Shown: in pieces, positions 15,385-39,708 of the stretch | How positions within the stretch are numbered: the stretch's first letter is position 1 | How the letters are laid out: the number at the start of each line of letters is the position of its first letter | From: Acidobacteriota bacterium | GTDB lineage: Bacteria; Acidobacteriota; JBCCFW01 | NCBI GenBank assembly: GCA_039029535.1 | Contig: JBCCFW010000004.1 | Coordinates: forward strand, 41,512 to 105,511 | Reading direction: 5' to 3' | DNA length: 64,000 bases | Position numbers and translations under genes: made by a program | The notes under the pieces: model-generated | Told to the model about the DNA's origin: nothing | The model's input: the letters and a program-made list of their open reading frames with translations, nothing else | Database searches by the model: none

Positions 15385-15399
15385 AGTGTCCGGGTTTCG

Positions 15400-24455: not shown

Positions 24456-25466
24456 TCACGACGAGGTGCTGCCGATGAGGCCTCGCGTGACCTGACCGAG
24501 GAGGCTCCGTCGCTCGACCACCAGCGAGACGGTCCCCGTCATGCCCGTGGTGAGCTCCAGGCTCGCGGGCACGGGACCGAGCGACAGGTGGGCGCGGTAG
24601 TGGCCGGTCTCGTCGTCGACGCTGCTCACGGCGACGAGCGTGGCGGAGAGCGAGCCCTGGTCGAGCAGCGAGTCGGCATCGAGCCGGAGTCGGCCCTCTC
24701 CGAGCACGCGCTGGAGGAGCCCCACCTGTCGAGGCGCGATCGTCGCCGTCGCGTGGAAGACCGCGGTCGACTGGCCCTCGGCGGAGTCCGACACCAGCGC
24801 GTGCAGCAAGGTCCCCGCCGGAGCGCGGGAGCCGAAGGACAGGTGAGCGACCCGACCGGCCGTGGCCGCCGTGACGTCGAGGTGCGCGTCACCCTCGCTC
24901 ACCGCAGCATGAGGGCCGTAGCGCTCCCGCAGCAGCGCCTCGGCGCGGGCCAGCTCGAAGCCGAGGCGTCGGCGTCGAGCCTGCTGCTCGGTGCTCTCGG
25001 CCTCCAGCCAGGCGAGCTCGGCTCGTGCGGCGTGCAGGCGAGCCAGTGCTTCGGAGAGCTCGGCTGATCGAAGCCGAAGCAGCGGCTGGCCGAGGTCGAC
25101 GCGGTCTCCGATGACGACGTGTCGTGCGTCGATCACGACGTCCTCGAAGAGCGAGTAGCGGTGCTCTCCCTCCACGCGGACGAGCTCGACGGGGAGCTCG
25201 ACCGTCCAGTCGAGGGGGATGAGGGAGCCACCGGCGACCAGCGCCACGGCGAGGAGCAGGCCCAGGCGGAGGGCGACGCGTCGGGCGCCCTGCGTGACGT
25301 CGAGGAGAGGGGAGTCCTCCTCGCGGTAGAGCTCGGTCGACTGGAGCGCGGTGAGCTCTCCCTCGGGTCGGACCTCGCCCGGAGGCGGCGGCCCCTTGCG
25401 GAGTCGGTCCGTGAGATCGACGACGGTCGATCCGGTGCCGTTCGGCGGCGAGACGGGCTCAGGCAT
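24456..25466 (-). CDS. HlyD-family membrane fusion / secretion protein
   Basis: Start at the internal ATG at 25466 (MPEPVSPP...), which overlaps the ABC-transporter TGA (ATGCCTGA). TM segment followed by a coiled-coil. The ORF-track N-terminus is an out-of-frame low-complexity artefact. Confidence 0.65.
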   Translation of the reverse strand: MPEPVSPPNGTGSTVVDLTDRLRKGPPPPGEVRPEGELTALQSTELYREEDSPLLDVTQGARRVALRLGLLLAVALVAGGSLIPLDWTVELPVELVRVEGEHRYSLFEDVVIDARHVVIGDRVDLGQPLLRLRSAELSEALARLHAARAELAWLEAESTEQQARRRRLGFELARAEALLRERYGPHAAVSEGDAHLDVTAATAGRVAHLSFGSRAPAGTLLHALVSDSAEGQSTAVFHATATIAPRQVGLLQRVLGEGRLRLDADSLLDQGSLSATLVAVSSVDDETGHYRAHLSLGPVPASLELTTGMTGTVSLVVERRSLLGQVTRGLIGSTSS

Positions 25467-27657
25467 GGGCGAGATACGCGTTGGTGAGGCTGGCATAGAT
25501 GCCGTCGTGGGAGAGGAGCTGCTCGTGAGTGCCGTCCTCGACGATGCGACCGTCGTCGAGCACGACGATGCGGTCGGCCCCGCGGACCGTGGACATGCGG
25601 TGGGCGATCGTGATGATGGTGGCCTTGGGGAAGCGCTCGTGCAGCCGGGCGGTGATCCTCTGCTCCGACTCGGTGTCCAGGACGCTGGTCGCTTCATCCA
25701 GGAGGATGATCTCCGGGTCGGTGAGGAAGAGCCTTGCGAAGGCCAGCTTCAAGCGCTGCCCGCTCGACAGGTTCCTTCCACCGTCGCTGAGGACGAAGTT
25801 GAAGCCCAGGAAGTTGCGACGCAGGAAGTCGCCGAGCTCGGCGTCCTCCATCGCCTGCTCGAGCTGCTCGAGGCTGGCGTCGGGTCTCACCTGCTGGAGG
25901 TTCGAGCGGATGGTCCCGTGGAAGATGTAGATGTCCTGCGGCAGCATCACGACCGACTGCCGGAGGAGCTGGGGGTGGTACTGCCGGAGCTCCGTGTCGC
26001 CGAGGAAGATGTTGCCCTCGTACGGATGGAGCTGGAGCAGCAGCTTGGCGAGCGTCGACTTGCCCGAGCCGTTGCGGCCCACGATGGCGAGGTGGGTGCC
26101 GGCCTCGACCTCCAGGTCGACCTCGTCGAGCACGCGGTCCGCCTCCTTCTCGGAGTAGCGGAAGGAGAGCCCCTCGATCCTCAGGTCGCCGTCCGGTCGG
26201 GTCGTGCGCTGGCTGCCGACGTCGCGAAACTCCGGCTCCTGGCCGATGAGGTCGTTCAGACGCTCGAAGGTCACGCTGAGCCCCAGCAACATCAGCCAGA
26301 GGTCGCCGAGGCTTCCCGCGCGGCTCACGACCATCATGAAGATGCTCGTGAAGGCCACGTACTGTCCGATCGTGAGCTCGCCCTGGACGGTGAGGTACGC
26401 ACCGATCCAGTACACGGAAACCTGGCTCGCCACGATCAGGCCGGACTGGAGGAGCCCGAGGCGGAGCGTGGACGTCTCCAACTCCATCGTCGAGTTCAGC
26501 GAGCGCGTGAAGAGGTGTCTCCAGTTCCAGAGACGCTGTTGCTCGATCCCGAGGATCTTGACGGTGTTGATGCCGTAGAGCGTCTCGGTGAAGCTGCCCA
26601 TCGCGTGAACGTTCGAGTGAAAGACCTTGTTTTCCAGGCTCCGAAGGCGAGGCGTGAAGACTGCCGACACGATGGTGATCACCAACACGGCCGCCAGCGC
26701 CACCGTGGCGAGGAGGGGGCTGTAGAAGAAGAGGAAGGCCGAGTAGGCGACGACCAGGAGGATGTCGAGCAGGGACTCGAGCACCGCCGGTGACAAGATG
26801 CCGGAGACCGACGACGCCTCCTGCAGGCGGTTGATGAAGTCCTCCTTCGGGTGGTCGTCGAAGTAGGACTGCCGCAGCCGCACGAAGCGATCCATGACCG
26901 CTCCGAAGAACGATCGCTCGTAGCGAGCCTTGAGCTGGATCATGAGGACGTTGCGCAGGTACTTCAGCAGGAGCTGCGTCGAGTAGACGAGGACGAGACC
27001 GAGGAGGATGGCGTGCAACAGGCGCAGGTCGTCGTCGACCAGGACTCGGTCGATGATGCCCTGGGTCATGACCGGGAGCCCGAGCCCCAGCAACTGCAGG
27101 ACGACAGTGGCGAGCAGGAGCTCGGCGAGGACCTTGCGAGCGGCGAGCAGGGGCGGCAGGTAGAACTCGCGGAGGAGACCCCACTTGCGACCACGTCGCT
27201 CCTCGATGAGCTCGAGCAGGTCGGGGTTGCGGAAGGCGTCCTCCGTCGGATCGACGGTGAACACGACGCCGTTCCAGCGAGCATGGAAACGATCCTTGCT
27301 CAGCTCATGCTCGCCGCTTCCCGGATCGATGAAGGTGATGGTGTCGTCGCCGACTCGCGTGACGACGATGAAGTGATCTCCCTGGTAGTGGGCGATGAAC
27401 GGTGCCTGCAGGTCCTGCATGCCCTCCCAGGAGGCGTGGTAACCCATGGCCTCGAAGCCGAACTTCTGAACGACTTCGGCCGCGAGGTAGAGGTTGGTGC
27501 CCTGGGCGTCGACCTGCGCGAGCTCGCGCAGCAGGTCCTGCACGTTGGTCATGCCCCAGTAGCGGAAGATCATCGCCAGGCAGGTGGTCAGACACTCGGA
27601 GCCGTCCCGCTGGAGGATCACCGGTACCGAACGTCGAGGCTTGAGCTTCGGTCTCAT
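25459..27657 (-). CDS. bacteriocin/lanthipeptide-processing ABC transporter with N-terminal C39 peptidase domain (LanT-like)
   Basis: C39 peptidase motifs QRDGSECLTTCLAM and HFIVV. Six-TM domain. Walker A GRNGSGKST, signature LSSGQRLK and Walker B ILLDEATS. ATGA overlap with the LanB gene. Confidence 0.9.
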   Translation of the reverse strand: MRPKLKPRRSVPVILQRDGSECLTTCLAMIFRYWGMTNVQDLLRELAQVDAQGTNLYLAAEVVQKFGFEAMGYHASWEGMQDLQAPFIAHYQGDHFIVVTRVGDDTITFIDPGSGEHELSKDRFHARWNGVVFTVDPTEDAFRNPDLLELIEERRGRKWGLLREFYLPPLLAARKVLAELLLATVVLQLLGLGLPVMTQGIIDRVLVDDDLRLLHAILLGLVLVYSTQLLLKYLRNVLMIQLKARYERSFFGAVMDRFVRLRQSYFDDHPKEDFINRLQEASSVSGILSPAVLESLLDILLVVAYSAFLFFYSPLLATVALAAVLVITIVSAVFTPRLRSLENKVFHSNVHAMGSFTETLYGINTVKILGIEQQRLWNWRHLFTRSLNSTMELETSTLRLGLLQSGLIVASQVSVYWIGAYLTVQGELTIGQYVAFTSIFMMVVSRAGSLGDLWLMLLGLSVTFERLNDLIGQEPEFRDVGSQRTTRPDGDLRIEGLSFRYSEKEADRVLDEVDLEVEAGTHLAIVGRNGSGKSTLAKLLLQLHPYEGNIFLGDTELRQYHPQLLRQSVVMLPQDIYIFHGTIRSNLQQVRPDASLEQLEQAMEDAELGDFLRRNFLGFNFVLSDGGRNLSSGQRLKLAFARLFLTDPEIILLDEATSVLDTESEQRITARLHERFPKATIITIAHRMSTVRGADRIVVLDDGRIVEDGTHEQLLSHDGIYASLTNAYLAHA

Positions 27658-30600
27658 GGTGCGGGTACTTCGGCGGTGACGAGTGGACGTGGTGCCTGCT
27701 CTGCGCGTGAGCGGGCGGCTCGGGAGACGTGGAGTCGATCGAGGAAGTCGTGCAAGACCAACTCGTGGGCACGCTCATGCGAGCGGACGAGACGGTTCAC
27801 GAACATGTGGAGGTAACTGACCGCCAGCTCGGTCATGGACAGGTGGCCGGCCTGCTCGTGCGCTCGCAGGCTCGGCACGATCTCGGCGAGGGCGCGCGAC
27901 CTCTCCTGGAACACGGCCATCGCATCCTTGCCCACGGTGAGCTCGGGTGCATCCAGCGCGTGCTGGACGTGCCGGCGCTCCGAGCGGTAGCGGGCCCCGA
28001 GGGGCACCCGCAACGCCCGCTCACCACCGTGCTCTCGGAGGTAACCGGCCCGCATCGAGCGGATGACGTGGTGGCGGTCCTCGATGTCAGGTAGGAGGTC
28101 TTCGAGGAGTTGCTGGATGCCGACGAGAGCGAGGCGCCAGCGCAGGTCGGCTCCCGAGCTTCCGCGGGAGAGGGCGACGAGACGCAGCACGGCGTCCGAG
28201 TCGGCATGGAAGAGCCGTTCGGACAGCTCCATCCCGTGTCGGCCACCGTAGCGTTCGAGCTCACGCTCATAGGTGTCGAGCTGCACGCGCCAGGCCAGCC
28301 CGTTCCGCAGCGGCTCGCGGAGGGCGGCGTGGAGCTGAGGGACGACGTCCGTGAGCAGGCGTCCCGGCTCACCGTGGACGCGGAGACGCACGGTGGGGTC
28401 GGGGTCCTGGAGTCGGATGAAGAACCAGCGGTCCACGACACCGTCATGCATCCAGCGTTCGACCAGAGGTCGGACGACGTCGCAGAGGAGGTCGTCGGCG
28501 CTCGCCGGCCCCGTGAAGATCCGTGCGTAGAGCCACTCGGAACCGGGAGCGAAGGTCCGCTCGCAGCCCGACAGCTCGACGCGGGGGAGCGAGGGCTCGG
28601 GTGTCGGTTCGCGACGCAGTGTCATCGGTACGAAGAGCTCGTGAACGAAGTCACCCTCCGGTCCGGTGACGGGGAGGTCGTCGAAGCCCCCCCAGTGCTC
28701 GCGAAGAACGGCTTCGTCTTCGCGCAGTAGCAAGTCGAGCAAGCTGTCGACCATCAGCTCGTTGTCGAGATCGACGAGCAGCTCGGAGTCACCACTGCCG
28801 AAGACCACGAAGCGCGGCCAGGCGTGTCGGCGACGCCACTTCGTCAACAGTCGCGGTCGCTCGTCGGGTGCGGACGTCGAGAGTCGCCGCAGGTCGTGTT
28901 GGCTCAGGCGCCAGCGAGCGAGGGAGAGAACGGTGTTCCCGAGGCACACGCGGGGCAGCGATGGCTGGGCCTCGAGCGAGCCCCAGTTCCACTGGAGCCA
29001 GCCGGCGACTCCCTGGAACTGCAGGTCGCTGAGGAAGCGATAGACACCGAGCGTGTGCGAGTCGGCAGAGTGCGCCGTGGTCAATCGAGGGACGACTTCC
29101 TTTCCGAAACGTGCCGACCGCAGGACCACGCGGTCGTCGACGACGCTCACGAGCAGGTCATCGAGCGGAATCTGATCCTGGACCGGGGCCCCGGAACGCC
29201 CGAGGAAGGGAATCTCGTGCTTCCGAAACTGCGGGCGGTGCACGACGTTGCCGTCGCGTCCCTCGGGCACGTGAACGACCTCGGCGAAGGCGGCGTCGGG
29301 GCGGAGAGCCTCCTCGCGTGCGAGGTGCTCGGCGACGTGCTCTCGCAGCGTTGCATCCCCCGTGCAGAATCGACCGAGGAGCTGGGCTCCGGACGGGCCG
29401 ACGGCCCCCTCGAACAGGAACCGGGCGTGGTCGTCCTGCCCCGAGGGAGCGAGCCGGATGCCTGCGGTGAGCGCGTCGGGGAAGGGCGGGCTCTCGGGTC
29501 GACGCAAGGCGGCGACGTCCGCGTCGCTCAGCACGAGCTCGTCCGCTCCGGAGCGTCGCCAGCGTTCGAGGATCTCGTGCAGGACGATGTCACGCGAGCC
29601 CATCTCGAGCGCCGCTCGCCCCGTGCCCGCTTCGTCATCGAGAGGCAGCCCGGCCAGTAGCGGCGAACCCGAGCTGCTCGTGGAGGAGGAGTTGCCGTAG
29701 CCGATGCCGGCCTCTTCGTCGAGCGCCTGGACCAGGGGGATCTCTCGCTCTCCGTAGCGCTCGACGAACGCGTCCCGGAAGCGGCCTAGCTCGCGATCGT
29801 GATCGAAGTCGGAGGCACCACGCAGGAACTCGAGGACGTCGGCAAGCTGGCTCGTGACGTTTTCGGAGAGCGTGGCCTCAGGTGCCGACTTGATGAGCTC
29901 GAGGTGGACGAGCGCTCGGCCGGGCGTGGGCACCGAGAGCGTTTCCAGCGTGGGCGTTAGACGGGACAGGAGCAGGCCCGGGGACGGCGTGCCGTCCCTG
30001 CCGAGCTCCCCCAGCGCGTGGTTGAGGTCGACGAGGGCCTCGTGCCAGCGTCCGCCGCCCGCGTGTTCACCGACCTGAGCGGTCAGCTCATCGAGTGAGC
30101 TAGGACCGGTCAAGCAAGGACGGAGGTCCGGGACGAGGAGCTGCTCCCTCGCCAGCTCCTCGACGTACTCTTCCGCTTCCTCCAGGTCGACGTCGGCCTC
30201 CCGTGCGAGCGAGCGCGCGAGTCGTTCTCGGGTCTCACCACCGCGCGCGTGCTCGAGCGCGGCGTCGAGGAACGGGGACGGCTCGAAACGGACGAGATGA
30301 TGGGCGCGGTTGCGGTCGCTGCCCTGGGCCTGAATGACACCGAGCTTGCCCGCGACGCGATGGAGGGTGGAGCTCGGCCGCAGCTTCGTCGTGGACACGA
30401 GCTCTGGAGCAGTGGCGAGCGCCTCGGCGATCTCCTGCACGACTGCTGCGTCGAGACGGACGTGGAGACGATGACGCGACGTCTCCGCAAGACGCAGGTT
30501 CGTTTCATCGCCGACGCGGACGACGGCGTGACCCGCGAAGAGTCCGAAGGGTGTCGCCCGCGAGGTCATGCGGGTCAGGTAGCGGACCAGCGAGCGCTCC

Positions 30601-30857
30601 ACGGCGCGACCCTGACGACTGTCCGGAGCGCGACGCCAACCTGGCAGCTCCGCGTGCAGGCTCGGCGAGGCAAGTGCGATCGCCGTGTCCACGTCTTCGC
30701 GATCGATGAACGCCGCGAGTCGATCTCGGAGCTCGCTTCGGTCGGATGAAGGAGCGTCGCCGCACCACTCCCTGAGCTCCCGGAGCGCATGTGCTGGCGT
30801 CCTCAGCACGGCGAAGCCCGAGCTTTCGAGGACGGGAGAGCGTTCCGAGGTCTTCAT
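27654..30857 (-). CDS. class I lanthipeptide dehydratase (LanB-like, glutamylation plus elimination domains)
   Basis: 1067 aa, the typical LanB size, with the N-terminal motif TPFGLFAG. ATGA overlap with the LanC gene. Confidence 0.8.
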   Translation of the reverse strand: MKTSERSPVLESSGFAVLRTPAHALRELREWCGDAPSSDRSELRDRLAAFIDREDVDTAIALASPSLHAELPGWRRAPDSRQGRAVERSLVRYLTRMTSRATPFGLFAGHAVVRVGDETNLRLAETSRHRLHVRLDAAVVQEIAEALATAPELVSTTKLRPSSTLHRVAGKLGVIQAQGSDRNRAHHLVRFEPSPFLDAALEHARGGETRERLARSLAREADVDLEEAEEYVEELAREQLLVPDLRPCLTGPSSLDELTAQVGEHAGGGRWHEALVDLNHALGELGRDGTPSPGLLLSRLTPTLETLSVPTPGRALVHLELIKSAPEATLSENVTSQLADVLEFLRGASDFDHDRELGRFRDAFVERYGEREIPLVQALDEEAGIGYGNSSSTSSSGSPLLAGLPLDDEAGTGRAALEMGSRDIVLHEILERWRRSGADELVLSDADVAALRRPESPPFPDALTAGIRLAPSGQDDHARFLFEGAVGPSGAQLLGRFCTGDATLREHVAEHLAREEALRPDAAFAEVVHVPEGRDGNVVHRPQFRKHEIPFLGRSGAPVQDQIPLDDLLVSVVDDRVVLRSARFGKEVVPRLTTAHSADSHTLGVYRFLSDLQFQGVAGWLQWNWGSLEAQPSLPRVCLGNTVLSLARWRLSQHDLRRLSTSAPDERPRLLTKWRRRHAWPRFVVFGSGDSELLVDLDNELMVDSLLDLLLREDEAVLREHWGGFDDLPVTGPEGDFVHELFVPMTLRREPTPEPSLPRVELSGCERTFAPGSEWLYARIFTGPASADDLLCDVVRPLVERWMHDGVVDRWFFIRLQDPDPTVRLRVHGEPGRLLTDVVPQLHAALREPLRNGLAWRVQLDTYERELERYGGRHGMELSERLFHADSDAVLRLVALSRGSSGADLRWRLALVGIQQLLEDLLPDIEDRHHVIRSMRAGYLREHGGERALRVPLGARYRSERRHVQHALDAPELTVGKDAMAVFQERSRALAEIVPSLRAHEQAGHLSMTELAVSYLHMFVNRLVRSHERAHELVLHDFLDRLHVSRAARSRAEQAPRPLVTAEVPAP

Positions 30858-32173
30858 GACGTCGCCTCAGCGCACGGAGAAGACAGGAGCAGGATCGCGT
30901 CCCAGGCTGGTGCGATCGAAGTCGTCGCCGCGAGAAGGGCGAGCGCGATGCCGGAGGCTCCGTTGAGGAAGCCGCTGTCGTCGTGCCATGCGAGTCGGCC
31001 GTCATCGCCTCGGTCCCAGGCGCGGTAGCCAGCAACGCCGGTTCCCGGGTGCTGCATGTCGAGTGCGAGCTCGAACCAGCGTCGTGCCGCGTCGGCCATC
31101 ACGTCGTCGCCCGTTGCATGCCAGAGGCGGTTGAACACGTGGCCGATGCCGGAAGCACCGTGGCACAGGGCGGCGTCCTCCACGCCGCTGCTCTCGCGGG
31201 TCCGCGCTGCCGCGCGTCGAGCGATCACACGCGCCTCGAGCTCCCAGTCCTGCCGGCCCGTGGCGCGCGCTGCCTGGAGCAGGACCACGCTGATGCCGAG
31301 CTCGCCGTGGCACCAGGCGAGACGAGCTGGGAGCTCATCCCTGCCGTCTCCCATGTCGTAGGGGAACACGGCGTCGGCATCGTCTTCGAGCTTGCGAGCG
31401 AGCAACCAGCTCACCGCTCCGTCGAGCAGGACGAGGGCACGGTCGCGCTCGATGTCGGCACGCACCAGCGCGCTCAGCAGGGCGGCGATTCCGGCGACGC
31501 CGTGGGCGACTCCGACACAATAGGTACCGCCGTTCGCGACGGCGTGTTCTGATGGCACCAGGTCGTTGCTCGTGAACCAGGCGAGGCCGTCGCCATGCTC
31601 CACGGCGAGCGTCTCGAGGTGGCCGAGCATCGAGCGCAGGCACGAGAACGCGCTCTCTCGAGGAAGTCGCGACAGCGCGTGGGCGCCGAAGCCGACGAGG
31701 CCTTCCACGAGGTCGTGATGATGGGGCCATGTCTCTCGCGAGAGATGTTCCGCCAGCGCGAGGTCGACGACCTCGCCGGGATCCGGAATGTCATCGAGAC
31801 CCGAGACGCGGTGAGCGAGCTGGCTCATGACGTGATCGCGGGCCCAGGCAACACCGACGAAGCCACAGTAGAGGGAGGCGGACATGGGGGTCTCGGCGAG
31901 CGCCACCACCGAACGCTCGAGTCTCGTCGCGACGGCATCTCCTGCCACCAGGCCGGGTCGAGCTGCCGAGAGATACGCGAGGGTGAGCGCGCGACCTGCA
32001 TTGCCGTCGGCCAGTGATTCGTCATCGGGACGCAATGTCGGCTCGGACAGGAGGGCGTCTGCGAGGTCACCGAGGGCGACGTTGGCTCGGACGGCGAGGT
32101 CGCCCTCCAGGACGGGAGTCCACGTGGCTGGAGTCGGGGTCGTTCGCGTTCGGCTAGCGCTGAGTGAGGTCAT
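30854..32173 (-). CDS. lanthipeptide cyclase (LanC-like)
   Basis: LanC zinc-site motifs VAHGVAGIAALL, AWCHGELG and ALCHGASGIGHV. Start assigned to the internal ATG at 32173, which is preceded by AGGAGA at 7 nt. The ATG at 32209 abuts the hairpin. Confidence 0.85.
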   Translation of the reverse strand: MTSLSASRTRTTPTPATWTPVLEGDLAVRANVALGDLADALLSEPTLRPDDESLADGNAGRALTLAYLSAARPGLVAGDAVATRLERSVVALAETPMSASLYCGFVGVAWARDHVMSQLAHRVSGLDDIPDPGEVVDLALAEHLSRETWPHHHDLVEGLVGFGAHALSRLPRESAFSCLRSMLGHLETLAVEHGDGLAWFTSNDLVPSEHAVANGGTYCVGVAHGVAGIAALLSALVRADIERDRALVLLDGAVSWLLARKLEDDADAVFPYDMGDGRDELPARLAWCHGELGISVVLLQAARATGRQDWELEARVIARRAAARTRESSGVEDAALCHGASGIGHVFNRLWHATGDDVMADAARRWFELALDMQHPGTGVAGYRAWDRGDDGRLAWHDDSGFLNGASGIALALLAATTSIAPAWDAILLLSSPCAEATS

Positions 32174-32212
32174 GCCCGGTCTCCTGGTTGGTCGGGGTGA
32201 GTGGTGCATGGA

Positions 32213-32243
32213 GCGTCCGGACCGGCATCGTCGGTCCGGACGC
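32213..32243 (-). terminator. perfect 12-bp stem-loop (GCGTCCGGACCG-N7-CGGTCCGGACGC) between precursor A and lanC; probable attenuator or processing hairpin
   Basis: Perfect inverted repeat read directly. No U-tract follows, so partial termination or transcript stabilisation is more likely than full termination. Confidence 0.5.
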
Positions 32244-32259
32244 GTCCACCGCGTTCGGA

Positions 32260-32460
32260 CTAGAGCCCGAAGTCCTCGCCGGTCTCGGCCTGGCGTGCGC
32301 TACCGCATCCCCGCTTCTTGCACTTCGTGCAGCCACAGGTGCTCTTGCGCTTGCTCTTCGGGACCGCCACGCCGCCCTGCACGTCCTGCAGCTCGTCGGC
32401 GTCGAGCTGGCGGAGGGTGTCCTTGTTCAGCACGAGCTTCTTCACGTTGTTCTTGGTCAT
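32260..32460 (-). CDS. RiPP precursor peptide A (double-glycine leader; polycationic Cys/Ser/Thr-rich core)
   Basis: 66 aa: MTKNNVKKLVLNKDTLRQLDADELQDVQGG / VAVPKSKRKSTCGCTKCKKRGCGSARQAETGEDFGL. ATG at 32460 preceded by AGAGGAAG. Leader has hydrophobic residues at -4, -7, -12, -15 and ends in GG. Confidence 0.85.
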   Translation of the reverse strand: MTKNNVKKLVLNKDTLRQLDADELQDVQGGVAVPKSKRKSTCGCTKCKKRGCGSARQAETGEDFGL

Positions 32461-32550: not shown

Positions 32551-32579
32551 CCTGTACAGCTCCTCGTGCGGGACCTGAC
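32551..32579 (-). promoter_or_regulatory. conserved cis motif GTCAG-N15-CTGTACAGG, copy upstream of precursor A (about 90 nt from the ATG)
   Basis: One of four copies with identical 15-nt spacing (also 32949-32977, 36365-36393, 38731-38759). Confidence 0.5.
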
Positions 32580-32640
32580 ACGCCACCAAGCTAGTCCCGC
32601 TCGTCTCCTCGTCCTGGGAGGAGTGAGCGGAGACGCAACG

Positions 32641-32665
32641 CTCGGACCGCGGCCGCCGGTCCGAG
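32641..32665 (-). terminator. stem-loop CTCGGACCG-N7-CGGTCCGAG immediately downstream of precursor B
   Basis: Perfect 9-bp stem. Shares the CGGACCG...CGGTCCG core with the hairpin after precursor A. Confidence 0.45.
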
Positions 32666-32684
32666 CGCCACCGAGCTCACTCGA

Positions 32685-32864: not shown

Positions 32865-32948
32865 GATCAGTTCCTTCTGAGTGGATTGGCATTGCTGTGT
32901 TGGGGACGACGACCCACGACGGGTGCGCGGACCATCGGCCGTCACCCC

Positions 32949-32977
32949 CCTGTACAGTCAGCCGTTCGGAACCTGAC
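32949..32977 (-). promoter_or_regulatory. conserved cis motif GTCAG-N15-CTGTACAGG, copy upstream of precursor B (about 84 nt from the ATG)
   Basis: See 32551-32579. Confidence 0.5.
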
Positions 32978-32986
32978 GCAGAGTTG

Positions 32987-34354
32987 TCAGGGCGTGACCG
33001 TCGCTCGGTGCTGTCCGCTTCGTGTCGCTGGCTGATCGAGGAAGCAACGAAGGAAGTACGGAGCACCATCGCGCAGCTCCCAGCGCGACGTTGGCACGCA
33101 GCGCTTCAGCTCTCGCCAGCGGCCGATGGCGAGATGCAGCGGTGCCAGCCACTCGGCGAGACGGAGGGTCTCGGCCAACTCCTCCGGTGTCGCGAACCCT
33201 CGCCAAGGCCCCAGGTAGGCTGCAAGCACTCGCGCTCGCAACTCCGGCGGCTCGCCATCGAGCAGGCCGGTGAAGGGGGTGAGGAAAGGATGGCTGAGCG
33301 TCGCGTCGGTCCAGTCGAGGATCGCGGGCTGACCATCGCGCTCGCAGAGATTGCCCAGATGAAAGTCGCCGTGCTCGAGCCCGCTGGGTCCGAGGAGTGC
33401 CAGGCGCCTACAAGCGTCGACGAGGTCTCCGCGGAGAGACGCGAACACGTCGAGCTCGGTTGCGGTGAGCCCGAATCGACCGAAGGTGACGGTCTCGGTT
33501 TCGTGCAGCAGTGAGTCGACTTGCTCTGGGAGTAGGTCGATGGCGGCTTCCGGCAGCCTGAGCGTGCGGAGCTCGTGTTCGTTCTCCAGGAGCGCGCGTT
33601 GCATCGTCGCGAGCGTGGCGGCCGCCTGGCAGGCGGCGTCTGTTCGAGAGAGTGTCGAGACGAGCGGATCGCCGAGCGAGCGTGTCAAGAACCAACCCCG
33701 GGATCGGTCATGGGCGATCAGCTCGGGAACGCGCCCGGGGCAGCGTGCGGCGAGGCAGCGGAGGAGAGCGGCCTCGCGTGTCGAGCTTGGCCCGACCATC
33801 TTGAGGTACGTGGTGCCGGCGTCGGTCTCCAACATGACGACGGCACCACCGGAGTCGGACTTGAGCGACTGAGCCTCGAGCACCGGCCGTTCCAGAGCGA
33901 CCTCGGCCCAGTCGATGGCCTCGTCCAGCCAACCTCGTCGCTGCCACGGCGCGAGGGTGACCGCTTCTCGCTCCGCCTCTTGGAGGCATTGACTCACGAC
34001 TGCGACGTGAGTTTCGTCGGCGAGATCCGCTCGAGCCAGCTCCTCCTCGGCCCACCATCGACTCTCGGCGGTGGCTCCGGTGCGGTGCCCGACGACGTGG
34101 TACACGTGGAACCGTTCGCCGGTCTGCAAGAACTCCGTTCCGGCTGCCACGACCTCCCGTGAGAACTGAGAGCGGACGCCGTGCCGTACCAGAAGCCAGT
34201 CCGTGACGTCCTGGACCTCGGGCTCGTCGTCGTTGTCGAACTCCACGGCAGGAAGGGTCCAGCCCTCACCGCTTCGGACGAGCAAGACCCTTGGCAGCGT
34301 GTCGTGGAGCAGGAGTGAGCAGAGTCGGGTGCGCCTTGCTCGCGGGCTACTCAC
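32987..34354 (-). CDS. aminoglycoside-phosphotransferase (APH)-family kinase with N-terminal ~150-aa extension
   Basis: Brenner catalytic motif HGDFHLGNL and downstream ILDWTDA (Mg-binding D). GTG start 13 nt after the JmjC stop. Confidence 0.7.
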   Translation of the reverse strand: MSSPRARRTRLCSLLLHDTLPRVLLVRSGEGWTLPAVEFDNDDEPEVQDVTDWLLVRHGVRSQFSREVVAAGTEFLQTGERFHVYHVVGHRTGATAESRWWAEEELARADLADETHVAVVSQCLQEAEREAVTLAPWQRRGWLDEAIDWAEVALERPVLEAQSLKSDSGGAVVMLETDAGTTYLKMVGPSSTREAALLRCLAARCPGRVPELIAHDRSRGWFLTRSLGDPLVSTLSRTDAACQAAATLATMQRALLENEHELRTLRLPEAAIDLLPEQVDSLLHETETVTFGRFGLTATELDVFASLRGDLVDACRRLALLGPSGLEHGDFHLGNLCERDGQPAILDWTDATLSHPFLTPFTGLLDGEPPELRARVLAAYLGPWRGFATPEELAETLRLAEWLAPLHLAIGRWRELKRCVPTSRWELRDGAPYFLRCFLDQPATRSGQHRATVTP

Positions 34355-34367
34355 GACGCGATCCCGT

Positions 34368-35558
34368 TCAGTGAACCTGCTGGCCGGCGTCTCGCTGGAG
34401 CGCGCCTTCCTTCAGCAGGTAGGCGAGGGTGAGCTCGACGAGATCCGGCGCGACGCTCGAGCACGCCGCGCGGGCGTCCTGAGCGGTGAAGGCGCTCGGG
34501 CGGTCGACGAGCCACTGCACCAACGGGAGCAGCTCGGTGTCGACCTCGATCTCCGCCCCCGCGTTCGGACGCCTGACACGGAGCTTCCAGTTGCTTCCTC
34601 GAACGCCCTCGTCCCGCAGCGACTTCGACGCGTCTGCCGGCCAGTGGAAGCGCTCGCCCGAGACGCTGGCGCTCTGCAGCAGTGACTCGGCGTCGAGCCC
34701 ATCGACCACCCGAGCGAGATCGGGAAGCAAGGTGGCGAGCTCGCGCGCGAGCCGTGCCCGGGAGCGCTCGTCTCCGGCGAGTCCGAGGGGGTAGGCCCGC
34801 CACTCCGCCAGGTTTCCGAGGCGGCGGTCGAGCTCCTCGAGCACGACGTTCTTCCAGGTCGGAGGTTGCACGGTGAAGTTGAGCGCGAAGGACTCACCGG
34901 CGACACCGGTCTCGTGCCAGACCCCGCGAGGGAGGAACATGACGCTTCCCTCCCTCAGCTCGACGGTCTCGGAGTTGCGTGGCATCCGACGAGGGAGCGG
35001 CCGACGTGCGTGCGGTGGGCCGTGGTCGTCCGTGGCCTTCGCGTGGTAGCTCTCGGTCGGGTTCACGACGTGGTGATTCGGCGCGAGACGCCAGGTCTTG
35101 GTTCCCCTGAGCTGCACGTTGAAGTTCACGTCGAAGTCGTAGTGCATCGGCACGCCCAGGCTGCGCTTCGAGGCAAATGCCTCGATGGAGACGTGGTCTG
35201 GATGGACTCCGAGGTCGGCGGCGAGCTCGGCCCGGGGGGAGCGCAGCTCGGGCACCGCGTTCTCGACGTTCGTGATGTAGAGCGTGTCGCCGCGCTCGTA
35301 GAGGTCGCGAGCGGTCGCGGCAGGGACCTCGGTCTGGAATCCCTTGTCGCCGAAGATGGTCACGGGCTTGCGGAGTCTTCCGAGCAGGACTCCGAGGTCG
35401 CGCATGGCGGGTAGGGTCGCGAGCAACCCGAGGCGGTCGACGGCGCCGTGGCCCACGTGACTGACTTCGGGCCAGTGCTGCCGGAGGAAGTCACGCTTGG
35501 GCATGCCGAAGAGGGTCCGCAGTCCGAGCTTCTTGTCAGTCGAGCCGTCTCGTCTCAT
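34368..35558 (-). CDS. JmjC/cupin-4 family Fe(II)/2-oxoglutarate-dependent hydroxylase
   Basis: HxD...H facial triad context (VPMHYDFDVNFNVQLRGTKTWRL ... FLPRGVWHET). Start at ATG 35558 with a GGAGAAG SD. Confidence 0.65.
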   Translation of the reverse strand: MRRDGSTDKKLGLRTLFGMPKRDFLRQHWPEVSHVGHGAVDRLGLLATLPAMRDLGVLLGRLRKPVTIFGDKGFQTEVPAATARDLYERGDTLYITNVENAVPELRSPRAELAADLGVHPDHVSIEAFASKRSLGVPMHYDFDVNFNVQLRGTKTWRLAPNHHVVNPTESYHAKATDDHGPPHARRPLPRRMPRNSETVELREGSVMFLPRGVWHETGVAGESFALNFTVQPPTWKNVVLEELDRRLGNLAEWRAYPLGLAGDERSRARLARELATLLPDLARVVDGLDAESLLQSASVSGERFHWPADASKSLRDEGVRGSNWKLRVRRPNAGAEIEVDTELLPLVQWLVDRPSAFTAQDARAACSSVAPDLVELTLAYLLKEGALQRDAGQQVH

Positions 35559-35589
35559 GTCTCTTCTCCGTCGTGTGGTTCGTGGCGCT

Positions 35590-36321
35590 TCAGGACGCGA
35601 TGTCGGATTGGTCGAGGTGGATGACGCCGGCACGCGAGGCTGCGTGGCGACCGAGGTCCCGGCGGAGCTCGATGGGGTCGAAGGCGGAGCTCTGGCGACC
35701 GTCTCGCATGCCGCGAGGCCGCCGGTCCCACCAGTTGACGAGGAAGGTCACGCGGATGGAGCCGGCGACGTCACCGGGGTAGATCGCGTGATAGAGATGA
35801 CCCGGGAACACGGTGTAGTGATTCGAGCGGGGGAGCACGGCGACGCCGCGTGTCGGGCTGGGCGGCGAGAGCGTCTTGCCAGAGGGGTCACAGCCTTGAT
35901 CGACGATGAGCGTCGGGCCGCCGTTGCGACCCAGGTAGAACACGGACGCGACGAGCGGGTGCACCATCCGTCCCGTGTCTTCGAAGAGCTGTTCGTCCTT
36001 GTCGAAGTGAAAGCTCTTTCCGTCGGTCGTGTCTCGAACCTGGAACCACCACTCCGCTCCGATGCAACTCGGTCCCGGCCGCGCCAGCCGTCGAAGCCGT
36101 CGAATGGCGTGCTCGGGCAGGGTCGACGGTGCGCGGTCGAGCGGGTACCAACCACCCGCCCGTGAGAGCTCGTTCCGCGCGCCCCGGCGGAGGGTGCGAC
36201 GGACGTGCTCGGCGAAGCGGCGATACAGGGTCGACGGCAGCGCCGAGCGGAAGCAGCGCGTGCTCGTCACGTCGGCTCGGTGACGGGAGCGGGGCTTTTC
36301 GGCGAGGGCTCGTGACGACAT
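35590..36321 (-). CDS. putative Fe(II)/2-oxoglutarate oxygenase (prolyl-4-hydroxylase-like fold)
   Basis: HFDKDE (HxD), ~55 aa later HYTVFPGHLYH, then IRVTF (RxS/T-like). ATG 36321 with a GGAG SD. Confidence 0.45.
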   Translation of the reverse strand: MSSRALAEKPRSRHRADVTSTRCFRSALPSTLYRRFAEHVRRTLRRGARNELSRAGGWYPLDRAPSTLPEHAIRRLRRLARPGPSCIGAEWWFQVRDTTDGKSFHFDKDEQLFEDTGRMVHPLVASVFYLGRNGGPTLIVDQGCDPSGKTLSPPSPTRGVAVLPRSNHYTVFPGHLYHAIYPGDVAGSIRVTFLVNWWDRRPRGMRDGRQSSAFDPIELRRDLGRHAASRAGVIHLDQSDIAS

Positions 36322-36364
36322 GGCGAACTCCGTTGGCGAGCCAGGGATGGCTCGTCGGTAGTTG

Positions 36365-36393
36365 CCTGTACAGCGCAGCGGTCCAGCTCTGAC
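36365..36393 (-). promoter_or_regulatory. conserved cis motif GTCAG-N15-CTGTACAGG, copy upstream of the oxygenase/JmjC/kinase unit (about 43 nt from the ATG)
   Basis: See 32551-32579. Confidence 0.5.
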
Positions 36394-36402
36394 ATCGGGC
36401 GG

Positions 36403-38673
36403 TCAAGCCGACGGAGCGATGGGCATGAGCAACGCTTCGTCCCAGGTGGGCTCGTCGAGGCTGACGGCCGAGAGCAACCCGAGAACGACGCCCGAGCGTC
36501 CATCGAGCAGGCCGTTGCCGCTCAGACGTGGAGGCGTGTCGTCGGTGGGCAGGGCGAGGGTCACGGCGTGGTCGAGCCACGTTCGCGCTGCCTGCTCGAG
36601 TGAGGGGTGACCGAGGGCTCGATGCAGGCGATTGAGGGCCTGGGCGACGCCGATGGCTCCGTGGCAGGCAGAGGCCGTGTCGATGCCGGCCGACTCCGCC
36701 GAACGAGTGGCGGCGTGGAGCGCGATGTCGAGGGCGAGAATCTCCCAGCTCGACTCTCCGATCGAGCGAGCAGCCGAGAGCAGTGCGAGCGCGATCCCGA
36801 GGTCTCCCGAACACCACGATGGGCGCGACGGGGTCGGTGTCGCCCAGCCGACGAATGACGGGAATCGAGACGCCGAGCCCGGAGGAAGCTCCCGGTCGAG
36901 GAGCCACTCGATGCTCTCGAACAACAGCTCCCGTGCGGAGCCCGGTGGCTCGTCGAGCGCGCAGGCCCGGGAGAGCAGTGCGACGACGCCCGCCATCCCG
37001 TGCAGCACGCCGAGGTCGCGACGTCCCCCGCGGAAGACATGAGGTGCCTCGGGTGCGTGGCGCATGAGCGCGAGAGACCAGTCCCGCGAGCCGTTCACGA
37101 GCGAGGCCTGGTCGAGCCGCTCGATCACGTCCTCAATGAGGCTTCGTGCCGACGCACGTGACCGGCGCTCGAGGGCATGAACGCCGATCCCGACGAGCCC
37201 GCCGCGGAGATCCAACCGCCCGGTCCAAGCCTGTGAGGCGAGCGTGTCCGCGAGGGTGGCGTCGACGTCCTCCAGGCCGTCGGCTTCGTGCAGGCTCGCT
37301 TCCGAGAACCGCGAGGCGACCCACGCGACACCGGTGAAGCCGTCGTGGAGACCGATGCCCAGCGGACGCTCGGCGACTGCTTCGAGCGCGACATCGAGCC
37401 ATCGCGACGCCAGGTCGTCGTGAGCCGAGTCGATGCCGGCGCGCGCCAGCTCGAGATGGCAGAGCGCACGGCCGGCCGCACCGGTCGCCAGGGAAGCGTC
37501 GACGGACCCGGCGTCGACCGAGACGTCGGGCTCGGAGACCAGCTCGTCGGACAAGCGGGCGATCGCGTCCCAGGTCGTCTCTGCTTCCTGGCCGACGAGG
37601 AGTGGTTGCCACCCTGAGACGGGAGAGGGGCTCATCGCAGCCGGGGATGGCACGACGTCGAGCCGGGCTGCGCCGTCGCTTGGGCCTCTCGCCGTCGGTT
37701 CGAGCTCGAGCACGTGGAAGGCCCGGCAGGCGATCGGCTCGGCGCCCAGCCGCTCTGCAAGACGGAGGGTGTGTCGGTAACCGGAGAGGTGGCAGTTGGT
37801 GTCGAACCACGTGCGGGTCGCGCCTTGCTCCGCCGCACGCTCGGCGACCGCCGAAAGGAGGAGCGCGTGAATTCCCGTCCTCCTCATGTCCGGCAGGATC
37901 TCCTCGTACTCGGCGTGAACGTGCGGCCCCTTCCGGAACGCGAGCAGCACGCCGACGGCGCGGTCGTTCACGCGTGCGACGACCGAGAGGTCGCGGAGCG
38001 CGCGGTAGTCCTCGCTCAGGAGCCAGGTGCGGAAGTCGTCGCCCTTCCGGCCCAGCACGACGTGAAACAGCGACTCGAGCGAGGCGTCGGGGTCGTCCGG
38101 GAGTGGGCCGAGGCTCAGGCCGTCCGGGAGCGTTCGCCGACGGGCGATGCGCTCGCACAGCGTCGCGACGTGGGCACGGAAGTCTCCGAGGTCCACGTCG
38201 AAGCTGGCTTGCTCGAGGTCGCGGGAGAAGCCCTGCTCACGGAGGAAGGCGACGGCTCCGGGCTCCGTCGGCTGCGTCACTTCGAGAGACGTGACTCCGG
38301 CGGCCCGACCGTCCTCGCGCAGCCGCTCGAGGAGGATGCTGCCGACACCGCGCCGACGGGCGCCCTCGGCGACACGCAGCAACAGGGGCACGCGCTCGCC
38401 GACGTCGCCCCAGTAGCGAACACCGCGCGCCGCGGCGCCGACCGGTCGGCCCCCTGCTTCCGCGATGAGCAGGCCCGGCGCCCACGGGCCCAGCGGTCCG
38501 AGGTGCTCCGCGAGTTGGGCCCAGTCGGGTCGTTCCTCGAAGAGCTCCGGCAGGAGCTCTCGGAGAACGTCGGAATCGGAGCCGGTGGCTTGCCGGACTC
38601 GAATCCCCGGTTCGGCCGGTGGGATCGAGTCCGACCACGTGGTCGCTGCCTGCGTCTCGGACCTGCCCTGCAT
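36403..38673 (-). CDS. fusion protein: tandem GNAT acetyltransferase-like domains plus C-terminal LanC-like cyclase domain
   Basis: N-terminal ~330 aa with GNAT-like segments (RRRGVGSILLERL). C-terminal LanC motifs GVLHGMAGVVALL, SWCSGDLG and SACHGAIG. ATG 38673 preceded by GGAGGAAC. Confidence 0.75.
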   Translation of the reverse strand: MQGRSETQAATTWSDSIPPAEPGIRVRQATGSDSDVLRELLPELFEERPDWAQLAEHLGPLGPWAPGLLIAEAGGRPVGAAARGVRYWGDVGERVPLLLRVAEGARRRGVGSILLERLREDGRAAGVTSLEVTQPTEPGAVAFLREQGFSRDLEQASFDVDLGDFRAHVATLCERIARRRTLPDGLSLGPLPDDPDASLESLFHVVLGRKGDDFRTWLLSEDYRALRDLSVVARVNDRAVGVLLAFRKGPHVHAEYEEILPDMRRTGIHALLLSAVAERAAEQGATRTWFDTNCHLSGYRHTLRLAERLGAEPIACRAFHVLELEPTARGPSDGAARLDVVPSPAAMSPSPVSGWQPLLVGQEAETTWDAIARLSDELVSEPDVSVDAGSVDASLATGAAGRALCHLELARAGIDSAHDDLASRWLDVALEAVAERPLGIGLHDGFTGVAWVASRFSEASLHEADGLEDVDATLADTLASQAWTGRLDLRGGLVGIGVHALERRSRASARSLIEDVIERLDQASLVNGSRDWSLALMRHAPEAPHVFRGGRRDLGVLHGMAGVVALLSRACALDEPPGSARELLFESIEWLLDRELPPGSASRFPSFVGWATPTPSRPSWCSGDLGIALALLSAARSIGESSWEILALDIALHAATRSAESAGIDTASACHGAIGVAQALNRLHRALGHPSLEQAARTWLDHAVTLALPTDDTPPRLSGNGLLDGRSGVVLGLLSAVSLDEPTWDEALLMPIAPSA

Positions 38674-38730
38674 GGTTCCTCCGTCGGGAGCAGCCGCGCC
38701 AGGACGGAGCCCGGCGTTCGTCTCGCAGCG

Positions 38731-38759
38731 TCAGGACAGTGCAGGGCCAAGAACCTGAC
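38731..38759 (-). promoter_or_regulatory. conserved cis motif variant GTCAG-N15-CTGTCCTGA upstream of the GNAT-LanC gene (about 57 nt from the ATG)
   Basis: Same 15-nt spacing, and its GTCAGGTTC matches copy B. The 3' block is degenerate (CTGTCCTGA vs CTGTACAGG). Confidence 0.4.
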
Positions 38760-39117
38760 TCCAGCGTCGCGGATCCGAAATCCGCGTGCGGCACGTTCCT
38801 CTCGGAATCGTGACCACCCTCTCGGCCGGCTGACCGCGACCAAACGACGCGCGGCAATCCCGCTCAGAGGGGAAAATTCAGCCGTCTCAGCCCTTCCTGA
38901 ATTGCTGATTCACCAAATTCCAACTCTCGCTTGACCGGTCGGCTGGGTGAGCGCAATTTGTTTAGAAATTCAGTCAGGAAGGTTCAGGGGCCTGGGGCTC
39001 ACGGGGTGTTGCCAGCATCCCGACACGGACGACCCCCAACGCCGGGGGTCGTCCTGCGTCTCATGCGGACTCCCGCCCGTCGTGAGCACGCAGGATTCCG
39101 GGTCTCGAACGCAGAAA

Positions 39118-39165
39118 GACGAAAAGGGCGTGGAGTCGCCAACTCCACGCCCTTTTCATTTTTCG
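39118..39165 (-). terminator. Rho-independent terminator downstream of the Nif11-type precursor gene (bidirectional)
   Basis: 14-bp GC-rich stem AAAAGGGCGTGGAG / CTCCACGCCCTTTT with 7-nt loop. Flanked by T-tracts on both strands (TTTTCATTTTT on plus; UUUUCGUCUUUC on minus). Confidence 0.75.
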
Positions 39166-39213
39166 ATCGGCTGGTCAGCCGTTGCTCGCCTCAACGGGCG
39201 GGCAACGAGAGGA

Positions 39214-39708
39214 CTAGTTCATCCACTTGTCGAGCCAACCGGTGTCGATGCTGACCGAACCGGAGGCCGAGCCGCCGACGGTGCCGGGCTTCGTGCCGCT
39301 GACGCCGGTGTTGTTGCGGTTGGCCGCCTGGCCGGGGGCCGAGCCGCCGCCGCCCATGCCGCTGCCGACACCCATGGTGTTGCCGGCCGAGCGACGACGA
39401 ACCGCGTCGTAGACGGCGGAGGCGTCGATGGTGCCGCCACGGATGTTGCCGACCGTGCCGCCCACGCCGCCGGCGACCTGCTCGAGCATGTCGTCGGAGA
39501 GCTCTTCCGCGCTGGCCATGCGGGCCTTCAGGGCCTCACGGAGACCGGACGCGTCCTCGGCCGAGAAGGCGAAACCGTGCTTGCCAGCGACCTCGGCGAC
39601 GGAGGTGTCGACGTCCGCCGCCTCCTCGAGGGTGCGGTTCAGCTCATCCCGCAGGCCTTCGTCCTGACAGGCTTTGTTGAAGAACTCCAGGGCCTTTTCC
39701 GTGCTCAT
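39214..39708 (-). CDS. Nif11-type leader RiPP precursor peptide with Cys-free Gly/Ser/Thr-rich core
   Basis: 164 aa. Leader MSTEKALEFFNKACQDEGLRDELNRTLEEAADVDTSVAEVAGKHGFAFSAEDASGLREALKARMASAEELSDDMLEQVAGG matches the Nif11 leader family (ends LSDDMLEQVAGG). Core GTVGNIRGGTIDASAVYDAVRRRSAGNTMGVGSGMGGGGSAPGQAANRNNTGVSGTKPGTVGGSASGSVSIDTGWLDKWMN. SD GGAGGAAG. Confidence 0.8.
   Translation of the reverse strand: MSTEKALEFFNKACQDEGLRDELNRTLEEAADVDTSVAEVAGKHGFAFSAEDASGLREALKARMASAEELSDDMLEQVAGGVGGTVGNIRGGTIDASAVYDAVRRRSAGNTMGVGSGMGGGGSAPGQAANRNNTGVSGTKPGTVGGSASGSVSIDTGWLDKWMN

Follow-up and report, generated by a model that had tools for sequence, protein, structure and literature searches.

We analysed a 64-kb window of contig JBCCFW010000004.1, a single contig of a metagenome-assembled genome (MAG) from an uncultured organism labelled Acidobacteriota bacterium, and focused on a putative gene cluster for peptides that are made by ribosomes and modified after translation (RiPPs) of the class I lanthipeptide type. 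The window, by which we mean the whole stretch of DNA that was analysed, has a GC content of ~69%, and third-position GC outlined one co-directional run of minus-strand genes at 24456-39708. In the order of transcription, the run starts with a Nif11-leader precursor gene, followed by genes for a tandem GNAT-LanC fusion, a prolyl-hydroxylase-like (P4H-like) 2-oxoglutarate (2OG) oxygenase, a JmjC hydroxylase and an APH-fold kinase. It continues with the precursor genes lanA1 and lanA2 and with genes for LanC, LanB, a C39 ABC exporter and an HlyD-like membrane-fusion protein (Table 1). The NCBI annotation pipeline (PGAP) calls an identical gene set (MEM7244048-MEM7244056). An earlier note on this DNA had described these genes as an uncharacterised lanthipeptide-like cluster with unusual tailoring enzymes. 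Every cluster item that it listed was recovered, either where it had been placed or a few codons away, and Pfam and NCBIfam scans, alignments and structure models of the cluster open reading frames (ORFs) reproduced all of its domain assignments, with the catalytic residues intact.

Table 1 Features of the cluster, in window positions, and of related loci on other contigs
Feature	Position or locus	Strand	Assignment or content
HlyD-like membrane-fusion protein, 336 aa	24456..25466	-	HlyD_3/HlyD_D23, TIGR01843 below cut-off, E ~5e-3
C39-peptidase ABC exporter, 732 aa	25459..27657	-	PF03412 E 9e-29, PF00664, PF00005
Full-length LanB dehydratase, 1067 aa	27654..30857	-	PF04738 E 4e-141, PF14028 E 3e-64
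Stand-alone LanC cyclase, 439 aa	30854..32173	-	PF05147 E 4e-33
GC-rich hairpin after lanA2	32206..32252	-	Fold energy -35.2 kcal/mol, z -4.45; no U tract
lanA2 precursor, 66 aa	32260..32460	-	NF038153; NCBI MEM7244051.1 'class I lanthipeptide'
GC-rich hairpin after lanA1	32621..32682	-	Fold energy -42.3 kcal/mol, z -3.34; no U tract
lanA1 precursor, 59 aa	32685..32864	-	NCBI MEM7244052.1 'class I lanthipeptide'
APH-fold kinase, 455 aa	32987..34354	-	PF01636 E 5e-13; model pLDDT 84
JmjC-type 2OG/Fe(II) hydroxylase, 396 aa	34368..35558	-	JmjC_2/Cupin_8: PF08007 E 5e-11, PF13621
Prolyl-hydroxylase-like 2OG/Fe(II) oxygenase, 243 aa	35590..36321	-	No Pfam match; P4H-like model
Tandem GNAT (aa ~40-320) + LanC (aa ~352-756), 756 aa	36403..38673	-	PF00583/PF13508/PF13480, PF05147
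Two-way terminator hairpin between Nif11 gene and tailoring genes	39121..39157		16-bp stem, T runs on both strands
Nif11-leader precursor, 164 aa	39214..39708	-	PF07862 24.3 bits (cut-off 23.8); borderline
L006 (Logan DRR350540 contig)	1292-4821		RiPP-like unit: Lys-rich ORF, P4H-like, JmjC, FAD amine oxidase
L005 (ENA ERZ25039527 contig_9391)	3541-11740		Bacteriocin-like locus: FemAB-like protein, 312-aa protein, 84-aa peptide
Conserved cassette	L008, L009, L010, L013, L015, L020, L022, L023, L024, L028, L029		Acidobacteria, Verrucomicrobia, Gammaproteobacteria MAGs
Second P4H-like context	L007, L011, L012, L017, L019, L026, L027		Roseibium, Rhizobiaceae, Zhengella

The core of the cluster encodes LanB, LanC and an exporter whose motifs all hold on alignment, with none of them lost. 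LanB carries both its glutamylation and its elimination domain (PF04738 at amino acids (aa) 53-706 and PF14028 at aa 775-1041). When the stand-alone LanC was aligned with NisC (2g02), the D, H, WC and CH residues, which we take to be the active-site and Zn residues of NisC, were kept in the motifs HHDLVEG, VAHGVAG, AWCHG and LCHGA, and a ribosome-binding site (AGGAG) precedes the LanC ATG at 32173. The exporter has the Cys of GSEC (aa 19-22), the His of GDHF and Walker A, and is predicted to cleave double-glycine leaders during export. The ATGA overlaps reported for the co-directional core genes are real at both junctions (LanC/LanB at 30854-30857 and LanB/ABC at 27654-27657). The gene for the HlyD-like protein is translationally coupled to the exporter gene, with an overlap of 8 nucleotides (nt), ATGCCTGA, and its product has a hydrophobic N-terminal segment. 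Its assignment stands with a weak, sub-cut-off signal, and its start lies at 25466 instead of the 25697 proposed earlier.

Two polycationic precursors had been proposed, and both were found. LanA1 and LanA2 are ~70% identical (68-73% by direction), with paralogous cores behind leaders that both end in LQDVQGG. The 29-aa LanA1 core, EAVPKRKGTKRKSTCSCQKGKSRFCRGGA, has a net charge of +8.8 and contains 3 Cys and 5 Ser/Thr, and the 36-aa LanA2 core, VAVPKSKRKSTCGCTKCKKRGCGSARQAETGEDFGL, has a net charge of +5.7 and contains 4 Cys and 6 Ser/Thr. Common to both cores are AVPK, a Ser/Thr and then the pattern KRK-S-T-C-x-C-x-K-x-K-x-R-x-C. LanA2, the only one of the two that was scanned, matched the class I leader model NF038153 (E 3e-7, 30.3 bits, cut-off 22). 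LanA2 also has an acidic 13-residue C-terminal tail, SARQAETGEDFGL (window positions 32263-32301), which LanA1 does not have; this tail might be cut off as a follower sequence, or it might offset part of the charge of the basic core. A GC-rich hairpin follows each of the two precursor genes, and such a hairpin behind the structural gene is a common arrangement in lanthipeptide clusters. With a complete LanB, a LanC and a leader joined to a Ser/Thr/Cys core, the locus shows every feature of a class I lanthipeptide cluster that sequence can reveal.

The GNAT-GNAT-LanC fusion was confirmed as one ORF, in which two GNAT stretches are followed by a LanC domain that scores as LANC_like (E 6e-29), with an apparently in-frame junction near 37610-37715. 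The acyl-CoA P-loop is canonical in GNAT1 (RRRGVG, aa 106-111) and degenerate in GNAT2 (RRTGIH, aa 264-269). In the LanC domain, the D, H, WC and CH residues aligned with those of NisC are kept, with C621 and C670/H671 as the predicted Zn ligands. Because these Zn and acid-base residues are kept, the domain would be expected to need a Cys-containing substrate, and among the cluster peptides only LanA1 and LanA2 contain Cys. The fused domain and the stand-alone LanC of the cluster share 36% identity, and each shares ~41% with the unrelated P0014, a LanC that also stands alone; the fused domain is thus no recent copy of the cluster's own LanC.

We searched 1.84 billion representative sequences with the fusion using HMMER and obtained 5583 matches. 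The best 150 of these comprised, the query aside, stand-alone LanCs of 366-503 aa and one 721-aa protein, and no other GNAT-GNAT-LanC protein was among them. The 721-aa protein (P0091) was set aside as a relative of the fusion, since no GNAT lies at its N-terminus, where the sequence, judged by eye, resembles flavoproteins. P0014, the nearest LanC relative of the fused domain, was likewise set aside, as its gene lies behind an ABC transporter gene and not behind a GNAT gene. A word-indexed homologue search with the fusion returned only the fusion itself, an exact-sequence contig look-up gave no record, and a sequence search of the PDB with the GNAT region gave chance or generic matches only. 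Tandem GNATs have a precedent in lanthipeptide tailoring: Lys1 of a lanthipeptide is acylated by NpuN, in which the first of the two domains holds the P-loop (PMC13060382). Membership of the fusion's GNATs in the clade of such selidamide enzymes was dropped because no significant similarity to NpuN/NosN/VipF was seen.

Two 2OG/Fe(II) enzymes are encoded directly downstream of the fusion. The JmjC protein aligns with Bacillus subtilis YxbC (1vrb/7zcc; E 4e-26), including the HxD (MHYDFD) and the distal His (VWHET), and has a C-terminal extension of ~100 aa beyond the assigned domain. Its identification as a JmjC hydroxylase thus stands, with the iron triad intact, and only the start has to be moved, most likely to 35558 and not the GTG at 35633. 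The neighbouring 243-aa protein gave chance or generic matches only in a sequence search of the PDB. Its AlphaFold model (pLDDT 82) had P. putida P4H (4j25/4iw3) and PHD2 as top Foldseek matches (E ~2e-7), and H105, D107, H178 and R190 are invariant across its homologues. The invariant triad and Arg, together with the model, bear out the suggestion of a second 2OG/Fe(II)-type oxygenase and narrow it to a P4H-like fold. Bacterial JmjC hydroxylases occur in RiPP contexts (PMC12710340), and BipG of biphenomycin biosynthesis is a JmjC hydroxylase that forms gamma-OH-Orn on a RiPP (PMC12707348). Like BipG, the JmjC Fe/2OG enzyme described here is encoded in a RiPP cluster, but the RiPP class is a different one and its closest solved relative is YxbC.

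We collected the genomic contexts of the P4H-like family with search patterns built from a 5-sequence alignment, as an 8-sequence alignment was too divergent. This yielded 32 genome loci, including loci from Acidobacteria, Verrucomicrobia, Roseibium and Myxococcales, in which the usual neighbours are FemAB-like or Acetyltransf_6 proteins. Some loci also contain C39 exporters, or HExxH membrane proteins fused to HlyD. One recurrent arrangement is a conserved cassette, whose proteins, called by reading the sequences, are a large HEFGHG-motif membrane protein fused to an HlyD-type C-terminus, a ~340-aa protein, a FemAB-like protein with the motif MKPKGRYNI, and the P4H-like oxygenase. In a second context, the P4H-like gene adjoins a gene for a ~430-aa Acetyltransf_6-type protein (Pfam-labelled for L004, the contig of L011), and in L007, L012, L017, L019 and L027 it also lies beside a gene for a ~311-aa protein that resembles aldo/keto reductases by eye. 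Identity of the fusion's GNATs as FemX-like aminoacyl-tRNA transferases was dropped, since they have no significant similarity to the FemAB-like/Acetyltransf_6 neighbours of this family.

Two further loci connect the P4H-like family with small peptides. L005 encodes an 84-aa peptide with a double-glycine leader, MRVLTVEEMKEVAGG, followed by a near-pure Gly/Ser core, TWSYGGSCGGGG, and downstream of the peptide gene lie genes for HlyD, a C39 ABC exporter and the P4H-like homologue. In L006, a P4H-like gene is preceded by a small ORF (54-68 aa) rich in Lys, which contains KKIAAPKNTDRKGVKLTKAEQEKLKAG and ...SKRCW, and is directly followed by a JmjC gene, whose product is 33% identical to that of the window; this unit carries no lanthipeptide genes. 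The adjacency in L006 behind a small Lys-rich ORF suggests that the P4H-like and JmjC genes form a recurring peptide-associated pair, which may have been recruited into the lanthipeptide cluster.

The fourth upstream gene encodes the APH-family kinase, for which the earlier note had pointed to the motif HGDFHLGNL. Its PF01636 match and catalytic residues support this identification: the motif lies at aa 328-336 (window positions 33347-33373), and K185, E194, HGD 328-330 and D347 (DW.D) are invariant within the kinase's small family. This family comprises a dozen APH relatives with 27-36% identity, and none was found in one-genome-per-species contigs. At a locus with an APH homologue (L001), the upstream gene was considered as a JmjC counterpart and rejected. 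The kinase and all of its homologues have an N-terminal alpha/beta domain of ~135 residues (aa 1-135), in which the order of strands and helices is Nudix-like and the Nudix box was not seen. The model's fold matches include macrolide 2'-phosphotransferase, APH(2'') and corramycin phosphotransferase (8agy, with the peptide antibiotic bound). The kinase shares the fold and the catalytic motif (HGD...N, DW.D) of these antibiotic phosphotransferases, but it is only 12-17% identical to them, has the extra ~135-residue N-terminal domain and is encoded inside a lanthipeptide operon. An AviCys-type role as a cyclase with a kinase fold was discarded, as a LanD flavoprotein and a C-terminal Cys are both missing.

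Producers of cationic ribosome-targeting antibiotics protect themselves by phosphorylation or acetylation; Vph, for example, phosphorylates viomycin and Cph phosphorylates capreomycin. By comparison with such systems, the kinase, the GNAT or both could be self-protection (pro-drug) enzymes, which would phosphorylate or acetylate the finished peptide and keep it inactive until or after export. We regard this as possible, though somewhat unlikely. By fold, the kinase indeed matches antibiotic-inactivating kinases best, the corramycin phosphotransferase among them, domain scans found no LanI/LanFEG-type immunity gene in the cluster, and GNATs in natural-product clusters can serve self-resistance (PMC13060382). 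However, the APH fold is generic and its matches do not resolve the substrate, and the fusion of the GNAT to a LanC that seems to be active suggests that it works on the leader-bearing precursor during maturation. Furthermore, domain scans of the cluster and the window revealed no phosphatase or deacylase that could reactivate the peptide.

The combination of a PF01636 protein with an extra LanC domain also recalls class V lanthipeptides, which use a stand-alone PF01636 kinase, LanK, for dehydration and, in class Vb, LanC cyclases (PMC12291118). In a hybrid of class I and class V, there would be a second route beside LanB/LanC, in which particular Ser/Thr residues would be phosphorylated by the kinase, undergo elimination and then be cyclised by the fused LanC. 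The likeness to class Vb is a family-level match only, and the obligatory lyase LanY (PF17914, HopA1-like) was found neither among the ORFs of the cluster nor among 30 other large ORFs of the window, while dehydration is already covered by a complete LanB. Such a hybrid is therefore very improbable, and on its gene content the cluster does not appear to be a class V system.

We then considered whether the four extra enzyme genes belong to the cluster at all. They lie immediately upstream of lanA1 and lanA2 on the same strand, with spacings of 81, 31, 13 and 121 nt (fusion to P4H-like to JmjC to APH to lanA1), and the genes for the P4H-like, JmjC and APH proteins, along with the beginning of lanA1, are confirmed by L003, an independent assembly from Logan. 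That they are chance neighbours with no role in peptide maturation would agree with the finding that APH and P4H-like homologues mostly occur outside lanthipeptide clusters. Against this, the genes share a strand with gaps of only 13-121 nt, no terminator was seen between them and lanA1, one of the four enzymes is physically fused to a LanC domain, and at other loci the P4H-like family has JmjC genes, C39 exporters and small peptides as neighbours. We thus consider chance adjacency extremely improbable.

The other end of the gene run is organised differently. The neighbouring Nif11 precursor gene is present as reported, with borderline scores that include TIGR03798 (30.4 bits, under the cut-off of 32.3). 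The gene has a GC3 of 0.90, and its product has a leader that ends in EQVAGG and an 83-aa core that is rich in Gly/Ser/Thr, has 2 Lys and is without Cys. No further precursors of the class I or Nif11 leader type were found elsewhere in the 64-kb window. A two-way terminator hairpin separates this gene from the tailoring genes, in a region that folds at -55 kcal/mol (z -6.3). The non-coding stretch up to the fusion gene measures ~450 nt from the terminator and ~540 nt from the Nif11 stop codon. A sigma-70 promoter scan found no usable promoter in the 38674-39120 gap, and Rfam and tRNA scans of the window gave no matches. This terminator and gap, set against the short gaps downstream, suggest that the tailoring genes read into lanA1/lanA2 and not out of the Nif11 gene.

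This arrangement bears on the alternative that two adjoining RiPP systems share one exporter, in which the Nif11 precursor would be the substrate of the GNAT, the oxygenases and the kinase, and LanA1 and LanA2 would be modified by LanB/LanC only. The Nif11 gene does adjoin the GNAT fusion on the same strand, in an arrangement that fits selidamide leaders, and the exporter comes closest to the NHLP-type ABC1 family (top NCBIfam match NHLM_micro_ABC1, E 1e-138, 463 bits, under the cut-off of 853). However, the Nif11 gene ends in a strong terminator well apart from the fusion, whereas the enzyme genes run into lanA1/lanA2. Its core also has just 2 Lys and lacks the Cys that the intact fused LanC would need, and its domain matches are borderline. 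Two separate systems at this locus are thus quite unlikely.

To place the cluster among known systems, we compared it with class I clusters of Gram-negative bacteria. Like these, it combines LanB and LanC with a short leader of the type K-K-L-x-L-x-K-[DE]-T-L-R-Q-L ... V-Q-G-G and predicted leader removal by a C39 ABC exporter, but its cores are unrelated and far more basic, and it adds a further LanC domain and four more enzymes. The closest relative found in this group is the locus L039. Pinensins reportedly carry an NF038153-type double-glycine leader. These products of Chitinophaga are class I lanthipeptides of a Gram-negative bacterium (PMC13060382).

In gene content the cluster bears a resemblance to those of selidamides, above all phaeornamide and the nostolysamides (PMC8784127, PMC13060382). 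Common to both are an enzyme that forms thioethers, a hydroxylase of PF08007, a tandem GNAT whose P-loop is in the N-terminal domain and degenerate in the second, and Nif11/NHLP precursors nearby. In the pathway to the selidamide phaeornamide, a RiPP that contains lanthionine, PhaI (PF08007) hydroxylates Orn, and the resulting hydroxy-Orn is the preferred substrate of the tandem GNAT PhaN (PMC8784127); by analogy, this pathway offers the strongest outside support for the mechanism that we propose. Selidamide GNATs acylate a side-chain amine on the leader-bearing precursor, which for our cluster is a proposal only. On the other hand, selidamides use a class II LanM, NHLP/Nif11 leaders and a peptide arginase (ksp, pha), whereas this cluster has LanB/LanC and class I leaders, its GNAT is fused to a LanC, and a P4H-like oxygenase and a kinase are added. 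The Lys-rich precursors here bear class I leaders, and the adjacent Nif11 precursor is transcriptionally separate. We do not claim membership in the selidamides, because the GNAT has no detectable similarity to NpuN/NosN, the synthetase is of class I and the Lys-rich precursors are without NHLP/Nif11 leaders.

We consider it fairly probable that the locus is a class I lanthipeptide cluster that makes one or two strongly cationic peptides, matured in the following way. LanB would glutamylate Ser/Thr residues and then eliminate the glutamate to give dehydro residues, and both LanC domains would close thioether rings. The JmjC enzyme would hydroxylate a basic side chain (Lys or Arg), and the P4H-like enzyme another residue, possibly the sole conserved Pro, in the AVPK motif. 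The fused LanC would hold the tandem GNAT on the peptide, and the GNAT would acylate a Lys side chain with acyl-CoA as the donor; the N-terminus would be unavailable for acylation, because the leader remains attached until the C39 exporter acts. The APH-fold kinase would act either in a further tailoring step, by phosphorylating a hydroxyl of the peptide, or in self-protection, by holding the peptide in an inactive state within the producer. Finally, the exporter would cut the leader after GG and secrete the product. The best reading of this product is a hydroxylated, side-chain-acylated class I lanthipeptide.

A bolder version of the pathway makes the fusion a new bifunctional maturase, whose LanC domain would hold, and perhaps cyclise, the class I precursor while the GNAT acylates a Lys or hydroxylysine. 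The oxygenases and the kinase would then build a hydroxylated, possibly O-phosphorylated basic residue, and a first lipolanthipeptide of class I would result, a ribosomally made, polymyxin-like peptide that is cationic, cyclic and acylated. We hold this version to be speculative and, as a whole, unlikely.

Several observations weigh against the favoured pathway of hydroxylation and side-chain acylation. LanB, LanC, APH and JmjC genes occur in 0 of the 32 genome loci of the P4H-like family, which suggests that the tailoring genes are recruits, and the two APH homologues with usable context lie outside RiPP clusters. The tandem GNAT has no significant similarity to NpuN/NosN, with which only the generic P-loop region aligned (BLASTP, phmmer and hhalign; E of at least 0.02, probability 2%), or to the FemAB-like neighbours of the P4H-like family. 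The fusion is known from one assembly, and the independent Logan contig spans its last 88 residues only. Moreover, we infer all of the hydroxylation, acylation, phosphorylation and self-resistance chemistry from gene content, and Lys, Arg and Pro as substrate residues are guesses.

Next, we examined how widely the cluster is distributed. Nine cluster proteins were found in a collection of ~15 billion sequences, and all were singletons at 90% identity. The closest LanB, at 41% identity, comes from the JGI metagenome collection (L039). At 3700-3900 of this locus, behind LanB, lies a peptide with the same leader type, MNEKTKKLGLKKETLRQLTREEAAQVQGG, and an unrelated, Trp/Gly-rich and non-cationic core, RHEGGWGVWLYDMWSTDACGGSQNPGASCAGGCN. 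No close homologue of the cluster or its parts was found in the sequence collections searched, and in particular no relative of the whole cluster with >50% identity. We found no paper describing this gene set, hydroxylysine-lanthipeptides or phospho-lanthipeptides, in a literature search of incomplete coverage. The tailoring combination, above all the GNAT-GNAT-LanC fusion, therefore appears to be absent elsewhere in the searches made. The claim that these genes are not normally found together thus holds for the full set, whereas its parts have precedents in selidamide and class V systems.

The genes on either side of the cluster agree with the boundaries drawn in the earlier note: outer-membrane beta-barrel and polysaccharide genes lie on one side, and nuclease, methyltransferase and housekeeping genes on the other. 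Just outside the cluster, 21306-24342 encodes an LPG_synthase_TM (flippase-like) membrane protein and a hexapeptide acyltransferase, together with a Legionella_OMP-type beta-barrel on the opposite strand. Among these nearby genes, none for a TolC-type outer-membrane partner of the exporter was seen. Farther out, 10481-21068 encodes a row of large proteins that look secreted: AlgX-type SGNH domains are found in two of them, and sialate O-acetylesterase (SASA) domains with thrombospondin type 3 repeats in two others. By its domains, this region resembles a locus for the O-acetylation/deacetylation of polysaccharides. Past the housekeeping genes, at a distance of ~11 kb from the cluster, 50799-54183 encodes a GntR-family regulator, an ABC ATPase, a 504-aa protein without a Pfam match and a second ABC ATPase. 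This unit might be an antibiotic-responsive efflux or immunity unit, with no link to the cluster.

To our knowledge, almost no RiPPs from Acidobacteriota have been characterised, and side-chain lipidation and basic-residue hydroxylation are so far known to us only from selidamides and biphenomycins. The cluster thus appears to be a worthwhile target for expression and discovery, with a chemistry that is hypothetical. A thioether peptide with a net charge of +6 to +9, possibly acylated, would be an antibiotic-like scaffold without a characterised counterpart. If the kinase and the GNAT serve self-protection, they would represent a resistance logic not described for lanthipeptides. If the favoured pathway is correct, the cluster may add a peptide O-phosphorylation step and would supply a natural acyltransferase-cyclase fusion as an engineering part, and side-chain lipidation and basic-residue hydroxylation would extend from class II to the tRNA-dependent class I lanthipeptides.

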